From Octopus vulgaris (lineage: Eukaryota), in assembly GCA_951406725.2 (NCBI GenBank), contig OX597830.1, forward strand, positions 69,564,001-69,628,000: a DNA stretch of 64,000 bases, written 5' to 3'. The position numbers were made by a program, and so were the translations under genes. This document shows, piece by piece, positions 1,413 through 60,991 of this stretch; position 1 is the stretch's first letter; each line of letters begins with the position of its first letter. Under the pieces are notes generated by a model that was given only the letters and a program-made list of their open reading frames with translations, had not been told where the DNA came from and did no database searches.

Positions 1413-1447
1413 GTTTAACGTTTCGAGCGGAGCTCTTCGTCGGAAAC
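1413..1447 (-). ncRNA. Minimal type I hammerhead ribozyme motif (Penelope-like), variant core
   Basis: Minus strand reads GTTT-CCGACGA-A-GAGC tcc GCTC-GAAA-CG-TT-AAAC. Stem I is GTTT/AAAC, stem II is GAGC/GCTC, stem III is the palindrome ACGT. Core is CCGA instead of CTGA. Confidence 0.6.
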
Positions 1448-1889: not shown

Positions 1890-3782
1890 ATATGTGGCAG
1901 TTGGTGAAGAATGGAGTTTGATATAGCTACCCTCATTTGCACCTCTTGCCGTGATGTAGGTTCATCTGGGACTCTCGACAGGAAGAGGTCCAGCTTTGAT
2001 TTGTTGGACATATTTTATGAAAAAGCTGTAAAATTATGGGAAACTTGTTGGAGGGTCTACTTGAGTTGCAGAAACAGTAATAACAACAACTCAAAAAACA
2101 ACAAGAACAACAACAAATGTTACTGCAACAAATGCTACAACTAATGAAGTTGGTAACAAAACCAGAAAATACATTCTTGCCAGACCATGTAGCAAATTCA
2201 ATAAATAAATTTAAATATGACCTAGAAGAAGGAGTCACCTTAGAGACATATTAGGGAAGATTTGAACTAATTTTCAAAAAAGAATGCCAAGACCGGATGG
2301 ACAAAATGAAAATGCATCTAATTCTGAGGAAACTGATGATGACAGAGCACAAGAAATACTGTGACTTTATATTGAACTAAAAAAGTTTCAGGCATAAATT
2401 TCATGGACACAATTGACATTTTATGTAAGATGTTCAGTGAAAAGACATTGTTATTCAACACATGTTGGAAGGGTTTGAATATGGAGAAAAGCAATGATGA
2501 AGACTTTACCACATATGCGGGTAGAGTGGACAGAGAGTGTGAGAGATTTAAACTGGATAAACTAACTCCAGACTCGTTCAAGTACCTGATTTTTGCTCAG
2601 GGACTTACTGCTAAAAAGGACACAGAAGTCAGAATGAAAATTCTCGCAAAGCTGGAAATGAACTTGTCGGAAGAGTGTGACGTGATATTAAAAGTGAGAG
2701 GAAATCCAATGCAGAGATTGTTTACAGACAAAACCAGTGTAGAAAAGTCGGAAGACGGATAAAGTGTGTCACAAAAAAAACAGGACATGCAACAGGAAAT
2801 AAACTCAGGTATGGCATGTGGTGGTGAGTACTTGAGAAAAGGGTGTCCATTCGATAAAGCAAAGTGTTCTCGTTGTGGGAACACAGTACGCATTAAATCA
2901 CACTGCAGAATAAAGATAATGAAAAATTGGACCATACAAGAAAATATAAATAGCTTGTCATTGGAGAAAAAAGTTTATACAGCAAACAGGAAAACTATCA
3001 AGGTGAGAATCAAAACCACTAGTGTCAAAATGCAATTAGACACAGGTAGTGACATCACCATCATAAATGAAGAAACATGGTGACAAATTGGTTAATCAAA
3101 ATTATTTAAATCAAATGAAGCAGGAAATAAATTATATTTCATCAGCGAATGTATTTGCAATGTAACTTTTTGAGGTGAAACATAAAGGACAATCATTTAT
3201 GTGTTGAAAAAAACCCCACTAAACCTATTTGGCAGAGAATGCATGGAGTTATTTAAAATGTGGGATACCCCCATTAGTGTTCCCTGTGAAAATGTAGTTG
3301 GGATGGTTAAAAGTTCGAATGAAGTCGAACAACTGAGACAAAAAAGAAAAAAATTGTTTCCAAATGTCGTTTTGGAAGGATTAGGTTGTTACACTAAAAC
3401 AAAAGTGAGGATCGTGGTAAAAGAAAAGGCAACTCCTGTTTTTGGGCCCAAATGGAATGTGCCATTTGCAACATTGGTCCAGGTCAATAAAGAGCTAGAA
3501 AGACTAGAAAGTCTAGCTATAATTGAAAAAGTCAACCATTCAGACTGGGCAGCTCCGACGGTTTATGTAAAGAAAAAAACACAATAAACTAAGAGTTTGT
3601 GCAAACTTTTCAGCTGGATTAAATTACGTTTCCTCGAACACAACAATCCATTACTAAACCCAGAAGAAATGTTCTCAAAACTAAATGGAGGAAAAATTTT
3701 CTCAAAGTTAGACCTCTCGGAGACCTATCTACAGATACAAGTACAGGAAGATTGTGGACACCTTTTAACAATCAATACCCAC
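1890..3782 (+). mobile_element. Decayed Ty3/gypsy LTR retrotransposon (Mag/K02A2.6-like): gag, protease, RT start
   Basis: Broken ORFs with gag (FTTYAGRVDRECERFKL), degenerate double zinc knuckle (CGGEYLRKGCPFDKAKCSRCGNTVRIKSHC), aspartic protease LDTGS, and RT (SDWAAPTVYVKK; FSKLDLSETYLQIQV..LLTINTHG). Possible tRNA-Leu PBS (tgtggcagttggtg) near 1893-1906. Many stops and frameshifts. Confidence 0.88.
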
Positions 3783-4937
3783 GGGAAACACCTTAAAATT
3801 TCAAACAAATTAATTTTGATATGGGGTAGGACCACCTTTGGCAGTAATTACAGCTTGAATTCTATGAAGTATAGACTCGTACAAAGTTTGAATGTTTCCA
3901 AAGGAATTTTTGTCCATTCTTCAACTAAAACAGTCTCCAGTTCTTGTAGGATATCAACTCCTTACTTGTTTTTCTAAAATGCACCATAAAAGTTCAATAA
4001 TATTGAGATATGGGGACTGTGTGGCCAGATAAGATGTTTAATGTCACTAGAATGTTTCTCATGCCATTCTGTAACAACTTTAGCTGTGTGAATTGGTGCA
4101 TTATCATCGTGAAATACTGAGTTTCCCTTCAGAAACAGTTCTGCAACCATAGGATGAATTTGATCAGATAAAATGTTTAGTCTTGACTGTGAATTTTGCC
4201 ATGAAGGGAAACTATTGGGCTGGCAGATTTCCAAGATATGGCTCCACCCCCGATCATCACAGATCCATATTTAACAGTTGGAGGAAGGCAGTCTGGATCA
4301 AATCCTTGTTTTGGCTGTCTCCACACGTATGACTCATCCAAGAAAATAACATTCTTCCACTGCTCTAGGCACCAATTCTGTAGGTTTTTACTCCACTCTA
4401 AATGCTTTGCAATGTTTGTTTTTGAAAGTAGTGGTTTTCTGATTGCAGCCCTCCCGTGAAAACCAGCTTTGTGCAGCTCCCAGCAAACAGCTTTTGTGGA
4501 AACTGGGTTCTTGAGGTGGTAATTAAGCTCTGCAGTAATTTTGGGAGCAGTTCTTTTGTGATCCTTTCTAACAATTTGCGTAAGAGTCCGACAGTCCCTA
4601 TATGATAGATTTGGTTTTCTTTGTTTCGATGAGGAGGTTTTTTTCCCTCTTACTCAAAGGCTATCATTACTTTTGAGACTGTACCTCTTGATACAACTGC
4701 CATATGAGTACCAACAATTTGACCTCTTTGTAAGTCAAATAGACCTGTCATTTTAATGAATTTTAATTACTTTTTTCTGATGATATCTGAAAAGAAACAG
4801 CTGTTTTAGCAAAACATATTAAGCAACATTAATAATAAATCAAAAAAAATAATAATAAAACTTTTGAAGGTTTTATAGATATTTCAAAATTATGATGCTA
4901 TGATGCGAGGTGTTTCCATTATTTTGTCCAACCCCTG
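3783..4937 (-). mobile_element. Tc1-family DNA transposon relic
   Basis: FHDDNAPIHTAK...IWPHSP transposase motifs (ORF 3974-4234). Right TIR is aggtgtttccattattttgtccaacccctg followed by TA. The left end keeps only the inner TIR part, ggaaacacct. Confidence 0.85.
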
Positions 4938-5074
4938 TATGTGTGTTTGTCTTATTTTTGTTAAAACGAAATGACTAATGTCACAGCTCCCTTTTGTTAT
5001 TGACTGATGGAATTCAAAGATGTCTCTTTTGTTCCCGTTGACATTTCGCAATATCAATAGGATCGGGTATAGCT

Positions 5075-5210
5075 ATATAGTTAAGGACCTCACTTTGTAA
5101 CCACATGGTCTTGGGTCCAATCCCATTTTGCAGAACAACTTGGGAAGGTGTCTTCTACTATAGCCCTGGGCTGACCAATGCCTTATGAAAGGATTTGGTT
5201 GTCAGAAACT

Positions 5211-5265
<55 letters not shown>

Positions 5266-5512
5266 CGTGTGTGTGTGTGTGTGCGTGTGCGTGTGAGTGT
5301 GTCTCTGTGCTAGTGTTCGTCCACCCCAACACCACATGATAACTGGTGTTAGTTTGTTTACATCCCTCAAACTTGGCAGTTTGGCAAGAGACTGATAGAA
5401 TAAGTACCAGACTTCAAAATAAATACTGGGGCCAATTTGTTCAACTAAAACCCTTCAAGGCAGTGCTCCAGCATGGTCACAACCCAATGAGTGAAACGAA
5501 TAAAAGATAAAA
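5075..5512 (+). mobile_element. SINE family A, diverged copy with internal (GT)n
   Basis: Similar to the full copy at 7568-7978. Confidence 0.7.
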
Positions 5513-5619
5513 GAGAAGATCATAAAAGACACACATAACATCTCTTGTTCCATGTAAGAAACTCAAAAGTCCCCCTTAAGAAACTTAAATGAAACTCAAG
5601 TCCAACTTAATGCTTTTTC

Positions 5620-6512
5620 TTTTTGGAGTCTGTTTGTAGGAAATCCGTGTTCTTCCTTTTTCTTCTACTTGTACACGTGGGTTCAACCACCTATAACTGT
5701 GTTGGTACCTGCAATGTGTCATACAACCATTCTGTAGGTTCTTCCAATCTGTCTGGTTCATTTTCTATGAATCTCTTCTTCAATTGGTTTCTGTGTCTTT
5801 TTTCAATACCTTTTCTGCTTTTAATCCCGTACATCATTTTCCCTATGTACTTTGTATTTTTCTTTCTGTGGTGTTAGCGGTGTTATGGGCTGTGATGAGC
5901 TATGTGGTGTTGGTGGAGAGGATGAAAAATGAGGTAGATGGAAGTAAGGCTTGCAGGGGCCGGCGGAAGAGTGAAAAGGGCGTGTGTGAGCAGGAAGCAC
6001 GTGTGGTCAGCAAGCACGTGTAGTCAGTTCCAGCAAAGAGCGCAGAGCGACAAGACGTGTTGAATTCGTGAGAGTGACCACTGATTTCGCCGAGGTAAGG
6101 CCTTTTGTATTTCTTTCTCCCGTTGCTTCTTTTTCTGTTGTCCTTTTCCTCCATCACACTACACTTTCTTCCCAGTATTGTTTTCCACTTTTATATGACC
6201 TTTTGTGCACCTTATCACCAATTTTGAAAAATTTTTGGTTTGTCTCTCCTGGTACTTTTCCTTTCCTCGCCATGTAACAGTTTATCAAAAACTGACTTCA
6301 TCTTCCTCGAGAAACATCAGTTCTGCTGGTGAGCTTCCTGCTGGTGTATCGGGGTTCAGTGTCACCCTGTATACCCTTAGGAACTGCTGCAGAGTGACTT
6401 CGTCTGTGACTTCCTTGTCTGCTTTTCTCAAAGCTCTTTTAAAAGTGCCCACAAAATGCTCTGTCTGTCCATTTGATCTGGGATGGTAAGGCACTATCAC
6501 TATATATTCCAC
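5620..6512 (-). mobile_element. Ty3/gypsy integrase C-terminal half, degenerate
   Basis: PYHPRSNGQTEHFVGTFKRAL...LQQFLRVYRVTLNPDTPAGSSPAELMF is the integrase core end motif (PYHPQSNG.AER..T.K). Confidence 0.82.
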
Positions 6513-6571
6513 TGCCCCGCTCCCTTATGACATTTTTATTATAGTCACAAAGCTTTTATTTTGTAAATTTG

Positions 6572-6946
6572 AATCGTGGCCGATGCCCGAATCATGGCCG
6601 ATGCCAGCGCTGCCTTGACTGGCCTCCATGCCGGTGGCACGTAAAAAGCACCATCCAAATCATGGCTGATGCCAGCGCCGCCTTGACTGGCTTCCGTGCT
6701 GGTGGCACATAAAATGCACCAATCTGATCATGGCCATTGCCAGCCTCACCTGGCACCTGTGCAGGTGGCACGTAAAAAGCACCCACTACACTCACGGAGT
6801 GGTTGGTGTTAGGAAGGGCATCCAGCTGTAGAAACACTGCCAGATCAGACTGGAGCCTGGTGCAGCCTTCTGGCTTCCCAGATCCCCAGTCGAACCATCC
6901 AACCCATGCTGGCATGGAAAACGGACGTTAAACGATGATGATGATG
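6572..6946 (+). mobile_element. RTE 3' UTR copy with about 60-bp units and (GAT)n tail
   Basis: ggcacgtaaaaagcacc units followed by gttaaacgatgatgatgatg. Confidence 0.82.
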
Positions 6947-7043
6947 TTTACAAGAATCTGATTTTTGGAATATGGTCCCTCAATAGTGCTATGCTCAAGG
7001 CTCAATTTTTTAATTCTTTCACATACTTTAAGAGCATGAAGAC

Positions 7044-7385
7044 ACATGGCTCAGTGATTAGAGTGTTGGGCTCACAATCATGAGGTAGTGAGTTTGATTC
7101 CCACATTGGGCTGTGTGATGTGTTCTTGAACGTGATACTTTATTTCACATTGCTCCAGTTCACTCAGCTGTAGAAATGATTTGCAACGTCACTGGTGCCA
7201 AGCTGTATCAGCCTTTGCCTTTCCCTTGGATAACATTGCTGACAGGGAGAGAGAAGGCTGGTATGCATGGGTAACTTCTGGTCTTCCATAAACAACCTTG
7301 CCCAGATTTGTGCCTTGGAGGGGAACATTCTAGGTGCAATCTCATGGTCATTCAGGAACAAAGGGCGTCTTTACCCTTTGCCTTT
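7044..7385 (+). mobile_element. tRNA-derived SINE family C
   Basis: A box tggctcagtgatt and B-box-like gagtttgattcc. Related copies at about 12262-12592 (+), 16600-16980 (-), 27573-27830 (+), 30606-30722 (+) and 55377-55690 (-). Confidence 0.72.
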
Positions 7386-7567
7386 TTATATGAAGAGCAT
7401 TGACAGGGAACCTTCTGATTTATATCCATTCATCCATCTATTTTTCTTTGACACTATTCCTGGGAGAATCATAGGGGTAGAATCTTCAGACACCTTCTCA
7501 AAAGGATCCTATCAGAAGCAAATGTAATTATATTTTTATAATTATAATTATATATAAATATAATTAT

Positions 7568-7978
7568 AAGGCGCAGGAGTGGCTGTGTGGTAAGTAGCTT
7601 GCTAACCAACCACATGGTTCCGGGTTCAGTCCCACTGCGTGGCATCTTGGGCAAGTGTCTTCTGTTATAGCCCTGGGCCGACCAATGCCTTGTGAGTGGA
7701 TTTGGTAGACGGAAACTGAAAGAAGCCTGTCGTATATATGTATATATATATAAGTGTGTGTGTATATGTTTGTGTGTCTGTGTTTGTCCCCCTAGCATTG
7801 CTTGACAACCGATGCTGGTGTGTTTACATCCCCGTCACTTAGTGGTTCAGCAAAAGAGCCCGATAGAATAAGTACTGGGCTTACAAAGAATAAATCCTGG
7901 GGTCGATTTGCTCGACTAAAGGCGGTGCTCCAGCATGGCCGCAGTCAAATGACTGAAACAAGTAAAAGAGTAAAAGAG
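7568..7978 (+). mobile_element. tRNA-derived SINE family A (CORE-like box, internal TA/TG microsatellite, taaaagag tail)
   Basis: Head aggcgcaggagtggctgtgtggtaag, B box gggttcagtcc, CORE-like cttgggcaagtg. More than ten near-identical copies in the window. Confidence 0.85.
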
Positions 7979-9807
7979 ATATCCAAGTGTGACCGACTGA
8001 GACAATGGATATTATCCAACCTTCTTGTTCTTGGTCTTATCCTAAGTCTTCTGTCAGTTGACTCAGCTTGAAGCATCTGTCTTGTGGTCCTTCACTGCAA
8101 CATTCTACTCACATGTCCATACTACCAAAGATCTGACTCTCTCAATGCAGAGAAGTTGTGGCTCAACTTGGAGCAACTCCCTGATCCCGAGCTATGTACC
8201 TTGTTGAATAATGTCGTTCCATTTTATTCACTTGTATTCCTGATTTTACTCTTTGGATCATGACCTAAAATTTGTGACCATAAGTGAGGAAAGGCACAGA
8301 AACCAGATGTAAATGGCAAATTTGGGTTTTCTCTTTTTTCTTTCTTTTTGTTTAAACTCTCCTTTTTTGAGTATTGAATGCTGAAGTTGGCACATCACTG
8401 GAGAGATTCAGTTGTACCATAAAAAAAAAAGGAAAATGGAACACTCTTGAAATCCACTCTGGTTTTATGCTGTTAAGTCATTTCATTACTGTATTTATTT
8501 TGAGATGCTCTATGTTTCTTTCAATTAATTTTAAATATAACAAAAAATTTAGTAAAATAACTTATTTATCAGTAAGCTAATGTTAGGAACACAAATTGTG
8601 ACTAAGGTTTGGTGGAAGATTTTAATTCAGAACTTTTGAAAACAAGACATTTGTACTCAGAGCCAGAGCCGGTTTCAGCCGGGTTGATATCAAAAGGGTT
8701 AAGTCATTTCGATAATTCCCTTCACTTTTCCAACTAAATCTTCTCTGAAGTTGTTATGTTTACTTTCCAAAATTGACTAGACACCTTCTGGTATACTTGT
8801 CTTCACAATTTGAGCACAGAACAGGTTATCTGCTTCCTCCAAAATTCTGCTTCATATTACTTTGGCTTAACCCTCTAACATTCACATTACTCCGTGAATG
8901 TTTAGCTGTTCACATTGCTTATTTTCAGAATAATATTATAGAAAGTGTAAGATGCCACATGTGGCCAGTTTGAAGATAAAACAGGGCTGAATATTTTGGC
9001 TAGATATGATCAGTTTAAATGCTAAAGAGTTAATTTTCCAACAGCTAAATTATTGTCAAACCAAGGAGTAATGGATATAGAAGGAAGTGTACTTATAGTC
9101 TCACCTGTTCCTTCAATCAGCAAATTTACTGTCAATCCCACAAGAAAGGAATGTGACCTAAGTGTTGCTGAAACCAAGCCTAAAGAGTCATCCCACGGTG
9201 TCTCACAAAGTGTTGGTTTGAAAAACAATAAACCACCTATGACAAAAGCTATGACAACAACAACAATGAAAACAACAGCAACAACTCCTTAAATAAGCCC
9301 CATTGTTTAACCTAGGTTGTTTAACTATTAGAAGACAGCACAGCACTTAATAGGATGTACTGACATTGCTTAGCTAGGCCAGAGTTTACACTATCCCAGT
9401 AAGAAATACAAAAGAAATAAAAATAACTATCACCTACGGAGTGTTTGAGAACCCAACAGAAAGTGCTTGAAGGAATGTGAGAAGCAATAGGGTATATGAA
9501 AAACGGAAGATTATATAGGATGGTCACAAAACTCTACCCCAATAACAGAGACAATATAAATATCCAGACGTGCATGCCTTCTCATGAATATGTAATCCTA
9601 CGCTTGTATTTCTGGAAATATGTAAATAAGGTGAGACAAGGCCACCGGAAATAATCTAATTATTTTTGAATGACTTTGGAGGTGTATGGAATGATTGCAG
9701 ATATCAGAACAACACAACACAAAAACTAGTCTGACCTAAAAATAGAGGTGCAGATGTTGCTCACTCCAGAAAACTTACTAAGGATACTCAAACTCATTCC
9801 CCTAGAG

Positions 9808-10026
9808 CAGTGGTTTTCAACCAGGGTTCCGCGGAACCTTAGGGTTCCGCCAGTACAGTCCAGGGGTTCCGCAAAAAGTTACAAAACTGCTAAAATCGGC
9901 AGTAATTTTTAATTCTCCTGTGCAGATATGTGTGCATAAGACTATTAAATTATTGCGCAGGGGTTCCTCAAGCCAGTGGAATGTTTCCTTGGGGTTCCGC
10001 TCCAGCAAAAAGGTTCAAAAGCACTG
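9808..10026. mobile_element. hAT (Charlie-like) MITE
   Basis: TIRs cagtggttttcaacc / ggttcaaaagcactg and a perfect 8-bp TSD ccctagag (9800-9807 and 10027-10034). Confidence 0.85.
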
Positions 10027-10801
10027 CCCTAGAGAATGGGAATTCATAAGTTTTGAAGAAAAACAAGGCTCAAAATGCACATATATACAAGAGCAAGCCT
10101 TTTTCTTGCCCTTCTGAATTATTATCAGATGACAAAGAAAAAAAGGGGTAACCCAGAGAGTGGCAAGTGGTAAACAGAAAAGTCAAAAAAAGAAAAGGCA
10201 AAAAAACCAAAGGCACCTATGAAGAAACATAAAAATGATGAAAATCAAAAGACACAAAATAATCACCAACTAACACAGGTACCAAAACAACACCAGGAAC
10301 AAACAAAATAACAAAACTCGAAACTACTACAACCACTACCACAGCAACAACAACAACCAAACATAGGATATTGACCACAAGAACAATGGTGATAAGACAA
10401 AAGCGCAATAGCAACAAATACACAAACAAAAACAACAACAACAGCAACCAAACACAAATAGAAAACATTGACTTAGCTGTTATAAAAAAACAAGTTGGCT
10501 GACTACATAAAAAAAAAAACAAATTATTTTCTAGTACACAACTCAAAATTTTCAGACCAATCTTAACAGCTGAAAATAGTCAGTCAATCTATACATCAAA
10601 ACAATTTTGGAGGACCAAAAATTCCATGTGAAATGCAGTAGAATTTGGAAAAATAATGACAATATTTGAATGTTTACTCTCCATGTTTACATTATATACT
10701 CTGCTGGTTTGTATGTCAGAGTATTCAATAGCAAACAGGTGAGGACAAATTTGAGAAATTCATCCCCAAAACACTCAAAGCCAGATTATTAATAAATAAA
10801 T

Positions 10802-10900
10802 ACCACCACCTCTTCCTCTTCCTCCTCCCCCTCCTCCTCCTCTTCCACCACCATCTCCTCCTCCACCACAACCTCCTCCTCCTCCTCTTCCACCACCATC
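10802..10900. repeat. (CCT/CCA)n low-complexity tract
   Basis: Directly visible. Confidence 0.85.
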
Positions 10901-11077
10901 TCCTATGCCTGTATCTTAGCAGTGTGGCAAAAAAACCCACCCCCCAAAAAACGATACAAAAAGTACCAGGTTTTAAAAAAAAGTACTAGTGTCAATTTGT
11001 TCGACTAAACCCTCCGTGTTGGTGCCTCAGCTTGGCTGCAGTCCAATGACTAGAACAAGTAAAAGATAAAAGATTAA

Positions 11078-11297
11078 CCCTTTAGTGTTTAAACCGGCTG
11101 TATCCAGCCCAAATATTCTACACGTTTTATGCTCAAACTGGCCAGAACATGCATCTCACACCTACCCTGCAATGTCACTCTAAAAATAAGCAAGTACATC
11201 TTTCCTATCTTGAAGCTACAAAATAATATTAGATAATTTTTTTTAAATGTGAATAAATAAGGATTACTTTTGACAAATTAATCTGAACACTAAAGGG
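11078..11297. mobile_element. piggyBac-like MITE
   Basis: TTAA on both sides, TIRs ccctttagtgtt / aacactaaaggg. Relatives at about 8868-9032, 56288-56508 and 61663-61840. Confidence 0.78.
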
Positions 11298-11764
11298 TTA
11301 AAAGATAAAATATAGCTGTTCACTATAGAACTATGAAAACCTTTTATACACAACAAAAGGTCACTCAAAATAGTATAGTTGCAATAGAGAAGACACAGTG
11401 TTGTTGTTGTGTTTGTTATACAGAGTGTAAAAAGAAGCCTGGAGTACTCTCCAGTTAAACCATTGTGTAGGTTTTGTTTCTTTGAAGCAGTTTCACAAAT
11501 ACTTTTTGCTTTCATTTTTACTCAGTTTTTGAGTATGAGCTAAGCAACTGACAAAGAAAGCAGCAATTTATCTGACAAAATTTTTAATGGTTCAGCATTG
11601 AACTGGTCCAAACCAGTTCAATATTTAGATCATTTGTTTAACCTACTTTCAATTTTCCCTCTGAAATTTTTCTCCAATTTTAGAATGTCTCTGAACTTTT
11701 ATTTATCGATGACCAGTATTGATATAACTGAATTGAGCAAGTCAAATTATTCCACTGTTTTGTT

Positions 11765-12020
11765 TACTCTTTTACTTGTTTCAGTCATGTGACTGTGCCC
11801 ATGGTGGAGCACTGCCTTTAGTCAAGCAAATCGACCCCAGGAGTTATTCTTTGTAAGCCTAGTACTTATGCTATCTGTTTCTTTTGCCAAACTGCTAAGT
11901 TACGGAGACGTAAACACACCAGCATCGGTTGTCAAGCAGATGACACACAAACATATACTCACACGCACATACATACATACATACATACATACATACATAC
12001 ATACATTCATACATACATAC

Positions 12021-12068
<48 letters not shown>

Positions 12069-12230
12069 GACAGGCTTCTTTCAGTTTCCGCCTACCAAAT
12101 CCACTCACAAGGTTTTGATTGGCCCAAGGCTATAGGAGAAGACACTTGCCCAAGGTGCCATGCAGTGGGACTGAACCTGGAACGATGTTGCTGGTAAGCA
12201 AGTTACTTACCACACAGCCACTCCTGCGCC
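11765..12230 (-). mobile_element. SINE family A
   Basis: Reverse complement of 7568-7978 with internal (CATA)n(TA)n. Confidence 0.85.
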
Positions 12231-12722
12231 TTTTAAAATTATTTAGTGTGTGAATCATTCAGTGGCTCAGTGTTTAGAGCATTGGACTCACAATCGTGAG
12301 GTAGTGAGTTTGATTCCCGGACCAGGCTATGTGTTGTGTTAAGACACTTTATTTCAGATTGCTCCAGTTCACTCACCTGTAGAAATGAAATGCGATGTCA
12401 CTGGTGCCAAGCTGCATCAGCCTTTGTTGTTCCCTTGGATAACATCGGTGGCGTGGAGAGTGGAGGCTGGTATGCATGGGTGACTGCTGGTCTTCCACAA
12501 ACAACCGCACCTGGACTTCTGTCTTGGTGGGTAACTTTCTAAATGCAACACCATGGTCATTCCTGACTGAAGGTGCTCTTTACCCTTTACCCTAGTGTGT
12601 GTGAACTCTGGCTTACAATGATCAACAATGGCCTTGTCATTCAAATACTCACAACTTATACATTTATTTTTACTTTTGTTCATTTGATTGCTAGTGGCAC
12701 TCTGTGACTCTTTTTGCAATCA

Positions 12723-13117
12723 CTCTTTTACTTGTTTCAGTCATTTGACTGCGGCCATGCTGGAGCACCGCCATTAGTCGAGCAATCGACCCCGGGACTT
12801 ATTCTTTTGTAAGCCTAGTACTTATTCTATCGGTCTCTTTTGCCGAACCGCTAAGTAACGGGGACATAAACACACCAGCATCGGTTGTCAAGCAATGCTA
12901 GGGGAACAAACACAGACACACAAACACACACACGCATATATATATATATATACGACAGGCTTCTTTCAGTTTCCGTCTACCAAATCCACTCACAAGGCTT
13001 TGGTCGGCCCGAGGCTATAGTAGAAGACACTTGCCCAAGGTGCCACGCAGTGGGACTGAACCCGGAACCATGTGGTTAGTAAACAAGCTACTTACCACAC
13101 AGGCACTCCTGCACCTA
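12723..13117 (-). mobile_element. SINE family A
   Basis: Near-identical to other family A copies. Confidence 0.85.
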
Positions 13118-13358
13118 TTATGTATATATTATATATATAATGTATATGTATATATATATTATATTATATATACTACAAAATTAGAAAATGGAGAAACATA
13201 CTTAAATCAATAAAACATCAACTATCAGATGATACCCAATCAATACTTTATTACACCATTACATATCAGTAAAGGCATTATACAAAATATAAAGTAAATA
13301 TAAATAGACAAGGAAGTAGAAATATAAAATATAAAATATAATGTGTAATTATCTCATA

Positions 13359-13468
13359 TCTGACAGCTGTTTCGGCAGTAAGGGCAGTCATACCTCATTT
13401 AACCTATAAGCCATAAAGGCAGGTATAAATGAGGCATTAACAAGGATGCCCCACGGCCTCTTCAGAGA
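13359..13468 (-). ncRNA. Type I hammerhead ribozyme motif with long stem II
   Basis: Minus strand reads TCT-CTGAAGA-GGC...GCC-GAAAC-AGCT-GTC-AGA. The core is canonical with a GUC triplet and palindromic ACAGCTGT stem III. Stem II extends through ggggca/tgccct and atgcctcattt/aaatgaggtat. Confidence 0.75.
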
Positions 13469-14184
13469 ATTTAATTTGTTATAATTGTGAAAAAAATTAT
13501 TTTTTCATATACATATAAATATAAAAATATAAAAATGTAAAATATAAAAACTTGTGCATAAACTCCATAATGCTACACATATATATAATACACATTGGTA
13601 CAATAATGCAAGGTAAACAAAACAAAATAAAACAAAATATATATCAGTGTATATATTAATATTAATAAGCACAGTTATTATACATATTTAGCTAATAGTT
13701 CCAAAAACTAACGCATAGGGAGATGTATGCGCACTACTATTTAAATTAAAATCATCCCTATACCTGAAAATAATAATAAAAAAACCATAGTTCAGTTCAT
13801 AAAATTATAAACCTATAAAAGTCAATATAAATTACTATTAATATTAATAATAATAATAATAATAATAGATACAGTTAAGTTAGCACCAAGTACATCCATT
13901 CAAAATCGAAATAACTATGAGTTTAGTTATCCTGTCCGCTTGATATTGATTATTCTAGATTAATTCGATTGGCTTGTAGTTTGAAATTTGAATCACAAAA
14001 GAAATTTTACGGTTGGTTAGTCAAGAAACGCAAATACGCACACGCACATCCACAGATCAATCGCACATACATACATAATTATATGTATACACACACACAT
14101 ACACTTATACACATACGCATCCACAAGCAACCTCTAGCATAAAGATAAATAAATAGGGGATATATAATGTATATATGTATATAT

Positions 14185-14400
14185 ACTCTTTTACTCTTTT
14201 ACTTGTTTCAGTCATTTGACTGCGGCCATGCTGGAGCACCGCCTTTAGTCGAGCAAATCGACCCCGGGACTTATTCTTTGTAAGCCCAGTACTTATTCTA
14301 TCAGTCTCTTTTGCCGAACCGCTAAGTGACGGGGACGTAAACGCACTAGCATCAGTTGTCAAGCAATGCTAGGGGGACAAACACAGACACACAAACATAT

Positions 14401-14432
<32 letters not shown>

Positions 14433-14782
14433 ATATATATTTCTTTACTACCCACAAGGGGCTAAACACAGAGGGGACAAACAAGGACAGACAAAGGGAT
14501 TAAGTCGCTACATCGACCCCAGTGCGTTGGTACTTAATTTATCGACCCGAAAGGATGAAAGGCAAAGTCGACCTCGGCGGAATTTGAACTCGGAACGTAA
14601 CGACAGACGAAATCGGCTACTGCTAACGTTTTCCAAGAAGCCATCGTGATGGCCTTCGGTCTACCAAATCCACTCACAAGGCATTGGTCGGCCCGGGGCT
14701 ATAGCAGAAGACACTTGCCCAAGGTGCCATGCAGAGGGACTGAACCCGGAACCATGTGGTTGGTAAACAAGCTACTTACCAC
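14185..14782 (-). mobile_element. SINE family A with a family B SINE nested at its internal microsatellite (about 14441-14630)
   Basis: The family A halves are separated by a family B sequence (ccccgaaaggatgaaaggcaaagtcgacc-like). Confidence 0.78.
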
Positions 14783-15149
14783 ATTATATATATATAATGT
14801 ATATATGTATATCTGTATATATATTATATATATATATTATATATATAATGTATATATGTATATATGTATATATATTATATATATGTAATGTGATTATAAA
14901 ATATAATTACATTATATTGGGAATGTAATATGTTTCTTTGAAAACCATTGTTAAATGATATGAATAGATGTTTGGTGTGTGTGTGTGTGTCTGTGTGTGT
15001 TTGTGTGTGTGTGTGTGTGTCTGTTTGTCTGTGTGCATGAAGGCATGTCATCTAGTAGTTAGGGTATTGCTCTCATGACCATGTGCTATGAACAGCTTGC
15101 CTGTGTATGAATAGATATGCTTACTGTAAATAAACAAAACCTTGAATGA

Positions 15150-15477
15150 AATGTAGCCAGTATGCTCTGCTGGTTGTGCTTGTACAGCAAAGTGCAAAAG
15201 TGCTGTGAGAAAAATTGGGTATAAGAGGCATCAGATGCAGCGTGCAAAAGAGAAGACTGCACTGGTATGGTTATGTAATGCACAGGGATGAAGAGAGTCG
15301 CATCAGGAGGTGCCAATCTCTAACTGTAGAGGGAAAATGTGTAAGGGGTAGATCCAGGAAGACATGGGACAAAATGGTGAGAATGGCTCTAGAGACATTG
15401 GGTCTTGCAGAGGGATGACAGGGGACTGAGGCTCCTGGCAGTTTGCTGTGCTTGAGAAGACACACCAAGCTAAGTAA
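15150..15477 (+). mobile_element. Old RTE LINE ORF2 C-terminal fragment
   Basis: IRCSVQKRRLHWYGYVMHR..EGKCVRGRSRKTW is homologous to ORF 45246-45923. Confidence 0.8.
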
Positions 15478-15929
15478 AAGCATGGTTGTCCTTGCATACA
15501 GGATCATCCCCTGCATCCCCCTCTAGTTGAGCATTCTTAATCTTGTGGAATCATGGATGGCTTTACATTAAATAAGTTTCAAAACTTAAATAAGAGCACA
15601 ACAAAGAAACAAATAGAACAGTCGCACAAGTCATTGGAAATGCTCTTTCCTATTCAGTTTATTATCGAAAAAAATCATAACAATTTCACACTTTTAATGA
15701 TAATATTGTTCATTTTTGGTGGCATCAACAGCGAATAGCTGCAGGGAATAATGAGCTGACATTGATGACAGTAAAAGAAACAAATATGACACAGGTATAA
15801 ATGTAAATATACAAACAAAATAAAGGTTACGGGGCTCTGAAGCAAGATGACATGTAAAGGGCTTCTCTAAAAAAGTCTGGTCCCAGCTCAGAGCTGAAGA
15901 ATACACTTTTCCAAGATGCCATGTTGCAC

Positions 15930-16252
<323 letters not shown>

Positions 16253-17057: not shown

Positions 17058-18680
17058 ATCAGGTAATTAAGGATGAAAAAATTTCCGATTTTCTTATGCA
17101 CCAAGTTTGACACTCGCCAACTCTAATGTTTTATCCTGACAATTCTTCGTTTCACAGCCTTGAAGAATTACATCTTCACTTTTCGAAATGCAATTCACGG
17201 TGCCTGATTATATTGTGAGTTTCCTCTTCTTAATCAATTTTTGTGAACCCACGGATAGATCAAAAATTCATGTTGCTTATGAATATGAGTTCCATCATGG
17301 AACCAATGCATCCCTGACAGCTTGAAACATGAATGAGGATTTTGGTGAAGATGTGCGAATGAGTGAACTGTACATCGATGGTTTGAGAAGTTCCGGTCTG
17401 GTAACTTTACTCTTGAAAATCAGCCCCGTGGTAGACCTGAGACCAAAGTGAACAATGATGAGCTGGAAACTGTAATGGAACCGCATACATCTCAAACCAC
17501 ACTTGAGTTAGCAGCAAGGTTTGATGTCTTGATTCCAACTGTATTGGACCAGCTGAAACAAATCAGCAAGGTAAAAAAACTGGACAGGTGGGCACCACAC
17601 GAACTGAACGAGCATCAAATGACACGTCATCTTGAAACTTGCTGTTCTTTGCAGTCATGGCATAAAAGCAAACCATTTTTGTATCGTATTGTTATGTGTG
17701 ATGAAAAATGGATTCTTTTCAACAATAGCAAGTGTTCTGTATGGTGGCTGGATAGAGATGAAGGGCCAAAACACAATCCAAAAAAGAATATTCACCAAAA
17801 AAAAGGTAGTGGTGTTCCAATGCTGGTGTCATCTACTACAGATTCATGAGCCCTGGTAAATCAATTACAACCAATTGGATGAAATGATGAGTGAACTTGC
17901 AATTAAACAACTGAGATTGGTCAATAGAGACAGAACAATTCTCGGATCTTTTTGATTTGAACGGCAGTTTTTTCTAGCGGTATCATATGAAATTGTCACC
18001 CATAATTATGACCCTAGTATCAATCTATTTTAGGGTTAGGGTTAGGGTTAGGGTTAGGGGTGGGGGGAAGGGTATATTTTTTCTTCACAAATGTAAATAA
18101 ACCCAATCTGTTTCTTAAACGAGGGACATATTCATACGGCATAGAATATTTTTTACCTCAATAGACGTCAGTGACTGGTTGAAATTGCAGAAATTGAAGA
18201 AAAAAAAACAACAAATATCTTACAAACTATAGAATTTTCTCAATAAAGCCAAGAGAAAAAGTTGTTTTATAAACACATTCTACCAGTATACGAAGTTTAA
18301 AATTTTTTAGTTACCTTTTCAAACCGAAAAGATCCCAATTCTCTTGCAAGACAATGCTCGACCACTTGTTACACAATCAACGCTACTCAAGTTACAGGAA
18401 CTGAACTTAGAAATACTCTGTCATTCACCATATTCACCAGACCTTACACCAACTGACTATCATGTTTTCCAGGGATTAGACAATTTTTTGCAAAGAAAAA
18501 ACTTCAAATCTGAAGAATTACTAAAGCAGCCTTTAGTAATTCCATCACCTCTTGCTCTCCAGAATTCTTTGCTGCCAACATAAATAAACTACCGATAAAA
18601 TGGCAAAACTGTGTTGATAATTTAGGTGCATACTTTGATTAACTACATTGCTTTTTTGTTGAGATAAAGTGAAATAGAGA
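17058..18680 (+). mobile_element. Mariner transposon relic interrupted by a MITE
   Basis: WAPHEL, IVMCDEKW, LLQDNARP and PYSPDLTPTDY motifs. Removing 17944-18343 rejoins LVNRDRTIL/LQDNARP. Ends are approximate. Confidence 0.88.
17944..18335. mobile_element. MITE with GGATC...GATCC termini, 8-bp TSD and internal (TTAGGG)5 (Merlin-like, tentative)
   Basis: TSD caattctc at 17936-17943 and 18336-18343. TIRs ggatctttttgatttgaa / ttcaaaccgaaaagatcc. Second copy at 50942-51352. Confidence 0.85.
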
Positions 18681-19395: not shown

Positions 19396-20477
19396 GTATA
19401 CGACAGACTTCTTTCAGTTTCTGTCTAGCAAATCTACTCACAAGGCTTTGGTTTGCTTGATGCTTTAGTAGAAGACACTTACCCATGGTATCACACAGTG
19501 GAACTGAACCCAGAACCATGTGGTTGGGAAGCAAGCTCTTTACCACATAGCCTCATGTACTTATGATTTACTTTTGTTCGTTTGTTAATATACTAAAACG
19601 TAAAAGTGTTCTGAGCACCTTTATAGTTTCTTCATGAATGTCATGAGAGAGTAAACAGGTTAATACAGCAAACTCTGTGACCCATGATATAAAAAGTAAT
19701 TTGCTACATTTGTTTGTGTTGGGAGTTTATGTTAGTTATTTTTGCAACCACTCCTAATAACAGCTATTTTTTTAAGGAGACACTACCACCCACACCCTTC
19801 ATTACAGCCTTACACACTCACCTCTAACCACACTTTGACATCATTTATATATATATGGCAGCCTTAAAAATTCCACGCCTCACTTATCATAGCTCTCACT
19901 CAATTGGGTCTGGTCTATAGTAAGCAACAACAGCAGCTACAATGACGACAACAACACCAACACAATTACTGGGCTTGGCTGTGAGGTAAGACAATTGCTT
20001 CGCAGCCATTTTGCTCTGGGTTCAGTCCTACTACATAACACCTCCTACTATTGAAGCATGACCTACTATGGAGCATGACTTCGAAATTTTTTTAGTCGAA
20101 TGAATCGACCCCAGTAATAATTTTTGAAGCCTGGTACTTATTCTATCGGTCTCTATTGCCAAACCGCTAAGTTACAGGGATATAAACACACCAACATCAA
20201 TTATCAAGCAGTGATTGGGGGGTGGGGGAGGACAAACAAACACAGACACAAAGACACATACACATAGATACATAAACACACATGCATTTGGGAAGCAAGC
20301 TTCTTACCACACAGCCACTCTTTCACCTATATATATATATATATATATATATATTTACAAGATAAGGGCAGAAGAAAAATTCTAATGCCAGATACGCAGA
20401 AACAAAAAAATTGTTGATAACCATTAAAGTTATGCGTCTCGAAACAAGCCGATAGAAATCTCTAAAAAATTTGTTAT

Positions 20478-20536
20478 TACCGTATTGGTCCAATTTCGGG
20501 GTTAATTCACAAGAAATTTTCCCCTCTTCAGCGGCA
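20478..20536 (-). ncRNA. Type I hammerhead ribozyme motif, intact core
   Basis: Minus strand reads TGCCG-CTGAAGA-GGGG(19 nt)CCCC-GAAA-TTGG a CCAA-TA-CGGTA. Stem I is 5 bp with one G-U, stem II is GGGG/CCCC, stem III is a near-palindrome, and the triplet is AUA. Confidence 0.8.
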
Positions 20537-20735
20537 CATACGCGAGATATAAATGAAATACTTATTCATACCCACGGAAGAAGCAAGCACCAAGTCCCGA
20601 GCAGACTTAATTACCCCAAATATATCCAAATAGAAAAATCTTAGGCGCACCTCAAGACACGTGTGATTCGAACTAGAAACTTTCACAGAGTGATAGAATC
20701 CGGAAGTGAAACACTAATCTATTTTATCCTATATC

Positions 20736-20789
<54 letters not shown>

Positions 20790-20874
20790 TGGTTAATAAT
20801 CATTCAGAAGAAAGTAAGAAAATGCAAATATAGCATTTAATAGAAATTTATTATCTGCAAAAATCAAGCACAGT

Positions 20875-20957
20875 CCCTTACAGCTGTTTCAATTAAGCCT
20901 AAAAGATTAAATAGCAAGTATTAAAATCATTCTATTGGGCAAAATCTCTTCAAAGGG
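20875..20957 (-). ncRNA. Degenerate type I hammerhead motif
   Basis: Minus strand reads CCCT-TTGAAGA-GATT...AATT-GAAAC-AGCT-GTA-AGGG. Same ACAGCTGT palindrome as the 13359 motif, with a C-to-T change in the core. Confidence 0.6.
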
Positions 20958-21017
20958 GTAGAAAAAAGATATACTTTAAAGTTTTTTATGTTGTGTTTTA
21001 GAATTTAATTTAACTCT

Positions 21018-21071
<54 letters not shown>

Positions 21072-21470
21072 ACTCTTTTACTTGTTTCAATCATTTGACT
21101 GTGGCCATGCTGGAGCACCACCAGTAGTCGAGCAAAACGACCCCAGGATTTATTCTTTGTAAGCCTAGTACTTATTTTATCGGCCTCTTTTGCCAAACCG
21201 CTAAGTTACAGGGACATAAACACACCAGCATCGGTTGTCAAGTGATGTTGGGGGGACAAACACAGACACGCAAACATATTCACACACATGCATATATATA
21301 TATATACATACATATATACGACGGGCTTCTTTCAGTTTCCGTCTACCAAATCCATTCACAAGGCTTTGGTCGGCCCGAGGCTATAGTAGAAGACACTTGC
21401 CCAAGTTGCCACACAGTGGGACTGAACCCGGAACCACGTGGTTCATAAGCAAGCTACTTACCACACAGCC
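21072..21470 (-). mobile_element. SINE family A
   Basis: Matches other copies. Confidence 0.85.
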
Positions 21471-21584
21471 ATTTGAGTCTGGTGAGTGACCTATACTCCT
21501 AAGTGTTTTATAGGTGCAAAACCAATAGTCACTCTATGACAGTCAACTGCCTAAAAAATATATTACTGTGTTGACACTTTAGAG

Positions 21585-26418: not shown

Positions 26419-26556
26419 TTATTCAGTTTTTTTCATAATTTTTTCTTGATGAATGTTTTCTTTTTGAATTAAATATAAACCTGATATGATGCACATAAAA
26501 CCTGCAAACCATTGCAAATTCAAATGTTCAGAGAAAATTATCCACCCCAAGATGGC
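26419..26556 (-). CDS. TMEM42: Transmembrane protein 42-like, last coding exon
   Basis: Acceptor ttctttcag, phase 0. AILGWIIFSEHLNLQWFAGFMCIISGLYLIQ...* parallels human [31 protein letters not shown]. Confidence 0.85.
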   Translation of the reverse strand, partial: AILGWIIFSEHLNLQWFAGFMCIISGLYLIQKENIHQEKIMKKTE

Positions 26557-28037
26557 CTGAAAGAAAGAAAAAAAATAGAGAGAGAATGTTATTGAATGAA
26601 GGAGGAAAAGAGAGATAGAGAGAGAGAAAGATTTGTGGTTCATATGTGAAACTAAATAAACTATTTTATCGAAATATTTTCTTTTTGCTTTGTTTTTACA
26701 ACAAATGGGACAGCTGATGCCAGTTTTCACAGAATTAAGGGTTTAAGGGATATCCCTTACCTTGATCACTGCATACAACACCAATCTATTGTAGGTTTTA
26801 CAAATCAATGAAAGAAACCTCTGCAGTTCAACTTTGTAGAAATGGCAGCTAAATCACACTCAACTCTCTTATAAAACAGAAAGGGCACATTTAAATCGGG
26901 TTGTTTAGATACACTATCTCTGAATAAAAGATGGAAGGGTCCCAATATGAATTATCTTTATTTATAGCTTCAGATGCTGGGCCTCACTGAGGAAATGATA
27001 AGGGACCAGGAGTTGTGGCAATTTGCTGTACTTGAGAAGGTGTGTCATGCTAAGTAAAACCGCTGCCGTCCGTACATGCAGGCTTGTCCTTTACAGGTGC
27101 CACTGCCACATAAAATGCACGTGTGCCAGTGCTGTGCAAATGCATCTGTGCCAGTGGCACATGAAAAGCACCTAGCACATTCAGTAAAGTGGTCGGTGTT
27201 GGGAAGGGTATCCAGTTGTAGAAACCATGTCAGAAGAGACAACTGGAGTCTGGCTAGCTCCTGTCAAACTGTCCAACCCATGCCAGCATGGAAAATGGAC
27301 ATTAAACAATGATGATGATGATGATGATAGCTCTACTTGACCAGAGCTGACCTGGATCTAAACAGTAACTATACATTTTGTTCATGGAAGGATTTAAGTT
27401 CAGTAATAAAAGCTAATGAAACACTAATCAACTATCATTTTCTATTAGTGCAATAGTAGAGAAAGAAAGACGAAGATAGTCTAGAATCCTTTCCAGATGC
27501 TTTAAAGAAAGAAAGACATAGAGACATAGTCCAGGACTTTTTATAGACTTTCAAGTAATATAGAATAAGGACATGGAGGCGCGTGGCTTAGTGGTTAGGG
27601 TGTCGGCATCATCATCGTAAGATTGTGGTTTCGATTCTTGGACCGGGTGACACATTGTGTTCTTGAGCAAAACACTTCATTTCACGTTCCTCCAGTCCAC
27701 TCAGCTGGCAAAAATGAGTAACGCTGTGATGGACTGGTGTCCCATCCAGCTGGGGAACACATACGCCATTGAAACCAGGAAACCGGGCCCATGAGCCTGG
27801 CTAGGCTTTAAAAATAGAGGCGCATTTATTTTTTTTAGAATAAGGACACAGAAGTGTGATTAATCTATTCATCCAGAATGAGATTACTGTTGGGTGCTAC
27901 TGCTTAGACACTGATGAATTGGCATGGGTGATTGGACAATCAGGCTGTTTTGGGAGGGTAAAGTACTTTTTGGTTCTAGAGGTAAACACACATTCACACA
28001 GATGTGCATGCAGAAATACACACACATACACAGAAAG

Positions 28038-28446: not shown

Positions 28447-28479
28447 TTTAACATTTCAGCCCAAGGCCTTCATCAGAAA
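28447..28479 (-). ncRNA. Minimal type I hammerhead motif in TMEM42 intron 2 (sense)
   Basis: Minus strand reads TTT-CTGATGA-A-GGCC ttg GGCT-GAAA-TG-TT-AAA. Same layout as 1413-1447. Confidence 0.55.
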
Positions 28480-37470: not shown

Positions 37471-37947
37471 GTTTCCAATAAATCCTGATTTTTTTTTTTT
37501 TTTTTGTATTAAGATGAAAATACTTTGTTAGCTATATTACATAAAAATAACAACATGTAAAATATTATTAATAAAGAAGTAAAACAAAGTGTTGATAATA
37601 AGGAAACAAAATAAAATAAAATAAAATAATATCTGAAATTTGTTTTTTGTAATAGTTTATTGTAGAATCGAAACTGCGGCTTAGAATGATTCGTTCGCGT
37701 TTTTTCTTTCTCTCTTTGCAGTGAAGGGAAACTCACAAGCTGATTAGATAATTTTCTCAAATAATAAATATCTTCAAAATATTCAATCATTAGCCATAGA
37801 TATATTAACAAAATAAAATAATATAAAATGACGTGTTTTTAAATGTCAGGTAACGAACAAAATAAAATTGTTATAGCGAATCCTTCTTCTCATTATATAT
37901 ACGGTTTTCACCCATGCTTTGCAGATTCGCAGTGAAAGTAATCCACT
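37471..37947. promoter_or_regulatory. Putative bidirectional promoter and 5' UTRs between TMEM42 and EMC8/9
   Basis: Divergent starts 477 bp apart, no transposon recognised, locally more CpG, CRE-like tgacgtg at about 37829. Candidate 75-nt 5' UTR intron at 37850-37924 (cag|gtaacg ... tgctttgcag). Confidence 0.6.
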
Positions 37948-38154
37948 ATGGTGGACTATAATGTCAGTCTTCAGGCTTACTGTAAAATATTATCTCATGC
38001 AGCCAAGTATCCTCATAGTTCCGTCAACGGAGTTCTTCTCGCCGAGGATACTAAGGTGAAGGATTCCAATAAATGCCTGAAAATGGTGGACACTATCCCT
38101 TTGTTTCATGTCTGCTTAGGACTCACGCCGATGCTCGAATTCGCCCTGACGCTG
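37948..38154 (+). CDS. EMC8: ER membrane protein complex subunit 8/9, coding exon 1
   Basis: QAYCKILSHAAKYPHSSVNGVLLAE...VDTIPLFH...LTPMLEFALTL matches EMC8/9 (UPF0172). Donor gttcgt, phase 0. Confidence 0.93.
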
Positions 38155-40730: not shown

Positions 40731-40734
40731 TAGG

Positions 40735-40834
40735 AAAATATGGAATGTTTCACGAATTTGCTTGTCAACCTTGTGCAGGGGCCATGCTAATCTTCTCTAT
40801 ATCGTTTCAATTTTAGAATATGTACTGCCGTAGC
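40735..40834 (-). pseudogene. U6: U6 snRNA retropseudogene, near full length
   Basis: Reverse complement gctacggcagtacatattctaaaattgaaacgatatagagaagattagcatggcccctgcacaaggttgacaagcaaattcgtgaaacattccatatttt aligns with U6 end to end. The ACAGAGA box is mutated to ATAGAGA. Confidence 0.93.
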
Positions 40835-40855
40835 TAGTTGTTATGAATTTTATTA

Positions 40856-47612: not shown

Positions 47613-48278
47613 TATGACTGAAACAAATAAAAGAATAAGTTGCATATGGAAATATCTATTTGATGACAGAAGTTTGTTAAATTTTCTTGATAGTATGTCT
47701 TTTTGTTGATCATCATCACCATCTTTTAATGCCTACTTTCCATGCTGGCATGGGTTGGACGGTCTGACAGCAGTTGGCTAGGCAGAAGAATGTTTCGGAA
47801 TGGTTTTTCCAGCTGGATGCCCTTATTGTGGAATGGACAATTGGCAGCATTCATGGTGCTCAGGATGAATTACCTTGCAGCATCTGCTTATGGTGCTCTC
47901 GGTTCAAATCTGGCCTATATCAATTTTTTTTTTTATAGGTGCAGGTACGGATGTGGTAAGGAGTTTGCTTCCCAACCATATGATTTTAGGATCAGTCCCA
48001 CTAAAGAGCACCTTGAGCAAGTGTCTTTTATTCCTATTGACCAAAGCTTTGTGAGTGGATTTGGTAGACAGAAATTGAAAGAAGTCTATGTGATGCTATG
48101 TGAAGAACACCCAGCACACACTGTAAAGTGGTTGGCATTAGGAAGGGTATCCAACCATAGAAACCATGCCAGATCAGACTGGTGTCTGGTGGAGCTTCCC
48201 AGTTTGCTAGCTCTGGTCAAATCGTCCAACCCATTCTAGCATGGACAGTGGACATTAAATGATGATGATTATATATAT

Positions 48279-60234: not shown

Positions 60235-60738
60235 ACGGGCACGAGCACCATACGAGCGTGATCGTTGACAGAGCGGCTAACCGGCTTCCGTGCCAGTGGC
60301 ACATAAAAGGCACTATTCGAGTGTGATCGTTTCCAGCTTCGCCTTACTGGCACCTGTGCCTCGAGTTAGTAGGGTGCTAAGAGCACCATCCGAACATGAT
60401 CGTTGCCAGAGCGGCTAACTGGCTTCCATGCTGGTGGCATGTAGGAGGCACCATTTGAGCGGGATCGTTACCAGCATCGCTTTACTGGCACCTGTGCCGT
60501 TGGCATGTGTAAAAAGATTCGAGCGAGGTCGTTGCCAGTACTGCCTGACTGGCCCCTGTGCCGGTGGCATGTAAAAGCACCCAGTACACTCTCGGAGTTG
60601 TTGGCATTAGGAAGGACATCCAGCTGTAGAAACTCTGCCACATTTTGACTGGAGCCTGGTGCAGCCATCTGGTTCGCCAGCCCTCAGTCATACCGTCCAA
60701 CCCTGCTAGCATGGAATGCCGTCGTTAAACGATGATGT
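60235..60738 (+). mobile_element. RTE 3' UTR copy, longer variant subfamily
   Basis: gagcgtgatcgttg units plus the standard 3' end. Confidence 0.75.
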
Positions 60739-60749
60739 AGTATAATAGG

Positions 60750-60991
60750 GTTGCATAAAATATGGTGTCCCTACCAGTTGCTTAAAATATGGTGTCCCTA
60801 CCAGTTGCTTAAAATATGGTGTCCCTACCAGTTGCATAAAATATGGTGTCCCTACCAGTTGCATAAAATATGGTGTCCCTACCAGTTGCTTAAAATATGG
60901 TGTCCCTACCAGTTGCATAAAATATGGTGTCCCTACCAGTTGCATAAAATATGGTGTCCCTACCAGTTGCTTAAAATATGGTGTCCCTACC
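60750..60991. repeat. 27-bp minisatellite, about 9 copies
   Basis: Unit gttgc(a/t)taaaatatggtgtccctacca. Confidence 0.95.

Follow-up and report, generated by a model that had tools for sequence, protein, structure and literature searches.

Unrelated (TA)n-bounded islands with type I hammerhead motifs in Octopus vulgaris are probably short copies of Penelope-like elements

The DNA analysed here, a stretch of 64,000 nucleotides from Octopus vulgaris that we call the window, contains two neighbouring non-coding islands, each bounded by (TA)n tracts and each carrying a type I hammerhead motif on the minus strand. Our work supports the idea that the islands are unrelated pieces, that island 1 is a member of a high-copy Octopus family, and that both are probably short copies of (TA)n-targeting Penelope-like elements (PLEs); these would likely be solo pseudo-LTRs or non-autonomous derivatives. 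The TA arrays and our own scan agree with the initial annotation of this DNA, which had pointed out the two islands and their ribozymes, and its proposal of several families of ribozyme-bearing, (TA)n-associated retroelement copies is supported. It had also treated the islands as one candidate system, and this idea is not supported: As it had itself seen, the islands share no alignable sequence, neither of them aligns elsewhere in the window, and a heterodimer of the two can be rejected since neither their stem III palindromes nor their stem I arms are complementary. Island 2 is likely an older and decayed insertion of another family that presumably entered the same TA tract.

We applied a custom descriptor of type I hammerheads whose stem III is palindromic to both strands of the window at strict, medium, and loose settings, and 60 dinucleotide shuffles in 1-kb blocks served as the null. 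At strict settings, the motif of island 1, which had been described as intact, was the only site, and none was present in any of the 60 shuffles. The medium settings gave three sites compared to a shuffle mean of 0.017, and the loose settings gave five, all on the minus strand, compared to a mean of 0.37 and a maximum of two; the latter contrast is generous, as the loose descriptor was fitted with the five claimed sites in view. The three sites outside the islands are those that the initial annotation had listed, and they are named here by the position of H17 (sites 1417, 13362, and 28450; see the table). The scan with hammerhead models that had been suggested as a check thus gives a divided answer: Our descriptor finds five motifs, and Rfam finds none, neither at the gathering threshold across the window, where U6 was the only match, nor at E<=10 over 20200-21200. 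At four of the five sites, a (TA)n tract follows 90-203 nt 3' of H17, and about 10% of random positions have such a tract within 200 nt. The proposed bounding by microsatellites therefore holds for these four sites but not for site 28450, where the nearest TA tract on the 3' side is 4.7 kb away. The ribozyme regions of all five pieces lack a second copy in the window. A scan of viral contigs with the pattern of the island 1 hammerhead gave no match, and neither did a blastn search of phages. Eleven matches to this pattern in metagenome contigs were dismissed as chance, as upon inspection none of the 11 had more than 1 bp of stem I.

Table. Positions of the islands, their (TA)n tracts, and the hammerhead motifs in the window
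Feature	Position	Strand	Remarks
Minimal PLE-type hammerhead	1413..1447	-	U4C, extra A before stem II, 4-nt palindrome; H17 at 1417
Third hammerhead	13359..13468	-	intact core, GUC triplet, 3-bp stem I; H17 at 13362
(TA)n tract, likely target, on the 3' side of island 1	20328..20354	.	
Island 1, non-coding, high-copy family member	20355..20738	-	384 bp
Type I hammerhead of island 1	20472..20542	-	custom scan
(TA)n tract between the islands	20739..20787	.	
Island 2, AT-rich, non-coding	20788..21023	-	236 bp, 26% GC
Decayed type I hammerhead of island 2	20875..20957	-	custom scan
(TA)n tract, 5' end of island 2	21024..21072	.	
Decayed minimal PLE-type hammerhead	28447..28479	-	extra A, broken 4-nt palindrome; not TA-bounded; H17 at 28450

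The hammerhead of island 1 has an intact CUGAAGA core (20531-20525), a 4-bp GGGG/CCCC stem II (20524-20521 with 20498-20501), GAAA at 20497-20494, an 11-nt palindrome for stem III (5 bp, a central A, and 5 bp; 20494-20484), an AUA triplet with H17 at 20483, and a stem I of 5 bp (20536-20532 with 20478-20482). Cleavage is predicted between 20483 and 20482. The full set of CUGANGA, GAAA, UH, three helices, and an open stem I is complete in island 1 and at site 13362. In island 2, the core (20953-20947) carries C3U, the one change that had been reported for it; a second departure had been overlooked, a G-U pair that closes the 4-bp stem II in place of the conserved G10.1-C11.1. Its stem III is a perfect 8-nt palindrome (20887-20880) followed by H17 at 20879, and stem I has 4 bp. 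The distance from H17 to the 3' TA tract is 128 nt in island 1 and 91 nt in island 2. Site 13362 has the same 8-nt palindrome as island 2, and its stem II is prolonged into a long and stable hairpin (fold z -4.25, none of 200 shuffles as stable). The spacers between core and GAAA measure 27 nt in island 1, 56 nt in island 2, and 83 nt at site 13362; the last of these exceeds the descriptors quoted in PMC8557442. The piece around site 1417 is short and has TA runs on both sides.

Endonuclease-bearing PLEs encode a telomerase-like reverse transcriptase (RT) together with a GIY-YIG endonuclease. No piece of either was found in or adjoining the islands, in agreement with the initial annotation, and Pfam had no match to the two longest frames on the sense strand of island 1. 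On this strand, a frame of 70 codons is open from 20565 across the ribozyme up to the 3' end, a length seen in 3% of 5000 shuffles in a post hoc comparison. It would fit the start of an ORF that overlaps the hammerhead, but a coding role is not supported: no homologue was found with Pfam, among 12 word-sharing candidates, or among 1.84 billion representatives, only four of the 19 variants are at third positions, and a common insertion of 1 nt breaks the frame.

That island 1 belongs to a high-copy repeat family became clear from the contigs of four sequencing runs, which were aligned to 20343-20750 at 80% likeness (X1 and X2 from organism A, X3 from organism B, and X14, which is RNA by guess only). 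The island was matched by 1430 contigs of X1, 1593 of X2, 1214 of X3, and 60 of X14, and the first three runs carry two species labels; island 1 is thus multi-copy. The summed depth over the island is mostly 1e4-5e5, and that of the long pieces listed for X1-X3 is 28-121; this difference suggests that the copies number in the thousands, even though a summed depth is no copy number. The two-island stretch is at least partly present in 20 of the 24 listed runs, which come from 10 studies; the runs of organisms C and D contain 25-32% of its words. Two apparent signals in these data were discarded. The depth towards the 3' end is about twice that of mid-island, but its dips track private differences of this copy and the depth is unreliable, and the 60 contigs of X14 cannot be read as expression, as they show neither ends nor strand.

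The sequence variation in the family bears on the question whether the motif has a role at all. Substitutions at a level of at least 5% in X1-X3 are absent from the 30 positions that make up the core, stem II, GAAA, stem III, and H17, and affect 34 of 326 positions elsewhere (P about 0.04, from 40 of the 42 variant rows). This conservation is modest because three other runs of 31-36 nt in island 1 are also free of substitutions in the same rows; the core is not uniquely conserved. The kind of change in the stems is more telling: The three variants listed for stem I (C-G to U-G at 20534, G-U to A-U at 20535, and G-C to G-U at 20482) all keep the pairing, and the majority letters at 20537 (76-88%) and 20472 (96-99%) each add a pair that this copy lacks, so that by majority letters stem I of the family has 6 bp and, beyond a 2x2 internal loop, another 3 bp. 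The only common indel in the ribozyme is located in the centre of the palindrome (12% in X1, 0.2% in X2, and 9% in X3). Conservation of the core and covariation in the stems had been named as a test of the proposal; no substitution in the core reaches 5% in X1-X3, whereas the stem changes are one-sided, with no two-sided compensatory change among the listed variants. This copy differs from the family majority at 15 places (about 4%). A sparing of CpG in the ribozyme was considered and gave no signal, with four of five unvaried inside and six of 10 outside.

These data leave little room for the idea that the motifs play no part as ribozymes, being due to chance or to a repeat that is not a retroelement, such as a DNA transposon or MITE targeted to TA. 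Near the ends of island 1 (20356-20365 and 20723-20732), an imperfect inverted repeat of 10 nt (8/10) pairs the ends in the predicted fold; it would suit such a repeat, and so would the silence of Rfam and a core conservation of no better significance than that given above. We nevertheless consider this reading very unlikely, given the clean shuffles at strict settings, the majority letters that improve stem I, and the occurrence of the same architecture with different palindromes in three families. Moreover, many copies extend about 30 nt past the left repeat, where the inverted repeat is therefore not terminal.

The ends of the family members and the joints between them provide one trait of PLEs and a few cases of a second. 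(i) Beyond 20353, a common AT-rich extension is present in 25, 33, and 31 contigs of X1, X2, and X3, respectively, and absent from this copy; it measures at least about 30 nt. Other contigs at the left end run into TA, and island 1 copies reach TA at both ends. (ii) Head-to-head joints of opposite strands were found at 20374/20609 (one contig of X1) and 20482/20531 (one contig each of X1 and X2), i. e. in three contigs among thousands. An optional 3' extension is thus seen in other island 1 copies, along with a few truncated head-to-head joints of the kind known from PLEs. Typical of PLEs are an optional tail (30-40 nt, in a fraction of copies), 5'-truncated copies, many of them with inverted partners or partly in tandem, and a bias towards (TA)n (PMC8557442; PMC11167929). 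Where the extension is present, the boundary (20353-20360) resembles a 5' splice site on the sense strand (GTAAGT; one loose-end row). PLEs keep introns. The joint 20482/20531 lies exactly at the predicted cleavage site, and three letters of stem I fit on either side; the joint may stem from a template that had been cleaved, or from no more than a switch across this helix. In addition, one contig of X1 has a short repeated 3' piece (20386 to 20353), and seven joints skip over internal parts.

On the right side, 12-21 contigs per run depart from this copy at 20710, and the family rejoins it near 20722-20724 (two joints of a single contig each, 20428-20722 and 20410-20724, and one loose end). 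Pieced together from these separate rows, this copy is likely about 40 nt shorter than the others near 20711-20722. The contigs over 20721-20750 have a depth of 5,000-16,000 and continue into the TA run. Because the contigs at the right end mostly continue into TA, the data point to a defined 5' end common to many copies of the family rather than to random truncation.

A common right end would also suit a rival reading, in which island 1 is a non-LTR retrozyme monomer that has dispersed, with a non-coding unit of about 430-450 nt. Source arrays arranged head to tail would then be transcribed and cut by double hammerheads to RNAs of unit length; these would form circles, from which PLE enzymes would insert copies into TA tracts. 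Animal non-LTR retrozymes are likely derived from and mobilised by PLEs, and are defined by head-to-tail arrays and circular RNA (PMC7229834). Their non-coding units of 150-450 bp with type I hammerheads, their low GC content, and the occurrence of monomers (Cervera and de la Pena 2020, PMC7229834; Li et al. 2026, preprint) have a counterpart in the two islands, which are non-coding, without protein match, of fitting size (384 and 236 bp), and equipped with a type I hammerhead. Solo monomers are common in retrozyme families according to a preprint (bioRxiv 10.64898/2026.07.22.740005). The canonical size of stem I (6 bp by majority) and stem II (4 bp), the internal loop in stem I, and a fold of the whole island that is better than that of shuffles (z -2.7, 40 shuffles) also suit a retrozyme. 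Set against this are the absence of head-to-tail arrays of either island from the window and of a right-end-to-left-end joint among the 10 listed joints, the latter being weak evidence as only about 19 letters match at the right end, as well as the PLE-like tail and head-to-head joints. A retrozyme origin of island 1 is therefore rather improbable in our view, and only the first half of the label "Penelope/retrozyme" that the islands had been given is supported; the second is unproven, with tandem units absent from both the window and the listed joints.

For short copies of PLEs, the palindromic stem III deserves particular attention. In a single copy of the island 1 ribozyme, the pairing probability is 0.95 for stem II and at most 0.03 for stems I and III; the hammerhead fold lies 6 kcal/mol above the minimum. 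When two copies with flanks of 12 or 20 nt were folded without constraint, the double hammerhead was obtained at -36.5 compared to 2 x -14.5 kcal/mol; with 40-nt flanks, other folds have the lowest energy in both islands. With short flanks, similar stems in trans are also obtained for island 2 and site 13362. The folding predicts that the island 1 ribozyme cuts as a dimer, and the role as a dimer device that had been assigned to the palindrome fits this predicted fold. Since the outcome follows largely from the palindrome itself, the dimer folding speaks for feasibility and not for activity. Dimeric variants of PLE hammerheads have reportedly been studied by Lunse et al. (2017). The copy in the window is probably inert or weak, because it is alone, has lost two pairs in the outer part of stem I, and cannot pair with the palindrome of its neighbour.

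Copies of this kind may arise as follows. The parent RNA would carry the hammerhead near its 3' part, and two copies, on one transcript or on two molecules, would pair via the stem III palindrome and swap their stem I arms. The resulting double hammerhead would cut after the AUA at 20483. A PLE RT/GIY-YIG protein made elsewhere could act in trans and nick a TA tract, and copying might begin some 130 nt on the 3' side of the cut site or some 30 nt beyond that point; with these two start points, copies without or with the tail would be generated. Frequent early stops, or restarts on a second template, may give truncated and head-to-head copies, and each insertion would split its TA tract, so that later families could stack there. 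As described in PMC11167929, reverse transcription can start at two sites downstream of the hammerhead, and the optional tail lies between them; targets are AT-rich, and cleavage by the hammerhead was dispensable for insertion of one element in vitro.

Among known elements, the ends of the Hydra clade of PLEs are closest in style, and the islands may work in a similar way, judging by hammerhead architecture and (TA)n. The proteins of this clade are marked by a C-terminal endonuclease without CCHH, by RWK and DKT motifs, and by a CxCX5C linker. In the study by Craig et al. (2021), 26 of 27 Hydra-clade families are marked (TA)n, and stem III is a 3-4-bp palindrome around 0-3 nt; Hydra-1_Obim of Octopus bimaculoides combines the (TA)n preference with a stem III of acca-a-tggt, a palindrome around a central A (PMC8557442). 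The features in common are insertion into (TA)n, a type I hammerhead on the sense strand near the 3' end, a short palindromic stem III, and an Octopus host, and the acag/ctgt arms of five Hydra families are those of island 2 and site 13362. In contrast, the 5+1+5 palindrome of island 1 is, by eye, one pair longer than any in their list, the stem II loops range here from 19 nt to a long hairpin compared to 3-10 nt, and the 3' end of Hydra-1_Obim has no sequence match to the islands. An exact-word search, which can miss diverged copies, did not find the island motifs in the consensus files of Craig et al. (PMC8557442).

Similarities also exist to the minimal hammerheads of the Penelope/Poseidon and Neptune groups and to PAc (Frangieh et al. 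2024), i. e. the dimer-dependent type I fold, single motifs in truncated copies, an optional tail, and AT-rich targets (Cervera and De la Pena 2014, PMC4209133; PMC11167929). PLE hammerheads are described in PMC4209133 as located in pseudo-LTRs, working as dimers, and found mostly as single motifs from truncated copies. This minimal pattern recurs at sites 1417 and 28450, with an extra nucleotide before stem II and a 4-nt palindrome. The two islands differ in lacking the extra nucleotide and in their longer palindromes, and island 1 has in addition an extended stem I with an internal loop.

The Naiads of Octopus are targeted to (TA)n and reported without canonical hammerheads (PMC8557442), the Naiad clade being marked by an N-terminal GIY-YIG; they share with the islands the (TA)n preference, the tail, inverted truncated partners, and remnants in cephalopods. 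One might imagine that island 1, island 2, and site 13362 are the 3' ends of Naiad-type PLEs with a stem II too long for the published descriptors, and that some seemingly hammerhead-less Naiads would cut as double hammerheads. Craig et al. searched cores 7-17 nt apart and marked eight families, including Naiad_Ovul, as half-cores 35-50 nt apart (PMC8557442); the spacers observed here measure 27, 56, and 83 nt. However, the available consensus 3' ends of Octopus Naiads do not match and show, by eye, no collinear likeness to the three sites, the island motifs are missing from the consensus file, and complete hammerheads with such palindromes are the pattern of Hydra. We regard this origin as highly improbable.

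The known systems also speak against the suggestion that elements of this kind might be undescribed in the lineage: With Hydra-1_Obim and the (TA)n-targeting Octopus Naiads, they are already listed in PMC8557442. The island families are new families of a known kind, PLE hammerheads in Octopus being the known part; our search of published papers did not find a description of the island families or of an octopus retrozyme. If the two islands are indeed short copies of PLEs, at least three hammerhead-bearing PLE-type families that look uncatalogued are added to the repeat inventory of Octopus, and Rfam models miss such hammerheads. The principle is unchanged, as (TA)n-targeting PLEs with dimer-type hammerheads have already been reported from Octopus. 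For the role of PLE hammerheads, the island 1 family would be a good test case, as it combines a long palindrome, a full-size stem I, and many copies with one genomic joint that coincides with the predicted cut site. A bolder scenario is conceivable but unlikely: Island 1 would be an abundant and discrete non-autonomous element of about 450 nt, the first cephalopod retrozyme, strictly gated by dimerisation through its 11-nt palindrome, with a circular RNA that Hydra-type enzymes home into TA, and sister families with a long stem II would be active and missed by the descriptors, so that ribozyme-bearing PLE ends would be far commoner in cephalopods than counted.

The window contains several other features. 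The first exon of EMC8 is located at 37942-38154 on the plus strand. Over 69 residues (37948-38154), its identity is 100% to Octopus sinensis EMC8 and 87% to the Argonauta protein. An exon of a membrane protein with a weak EamA match is located at 26419-26742 on the minus strand, and the hammerhead at site 28450 may sit in sense orientation in an intron of this gene. The U6 snRNA copy (40734-40840, minus strand; Rfam 92 bits) has several changes and is probably a retrocopy. A frameshifted LINE reverse transcriptase (45246-47655, minus strand; Pfam RVT_1) is presumably RTE-like, and decayed pieces of an LTR-type pol, of Tc1 and mariner transposases, and a zf-RVT fragment are present at 2376-4653, 17367-17849, and 41802-42386. 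A minisatellite of 27 nt (60723-61046) comprises nine near-perfect copies. Finally, a SINE-like repeat with an internal CA/TA run occurs in about ten copies (families D6-D9; e. g. 12696-13110 and 21046-21476), and the end of one copy adjoins island 1 across the TA tract.
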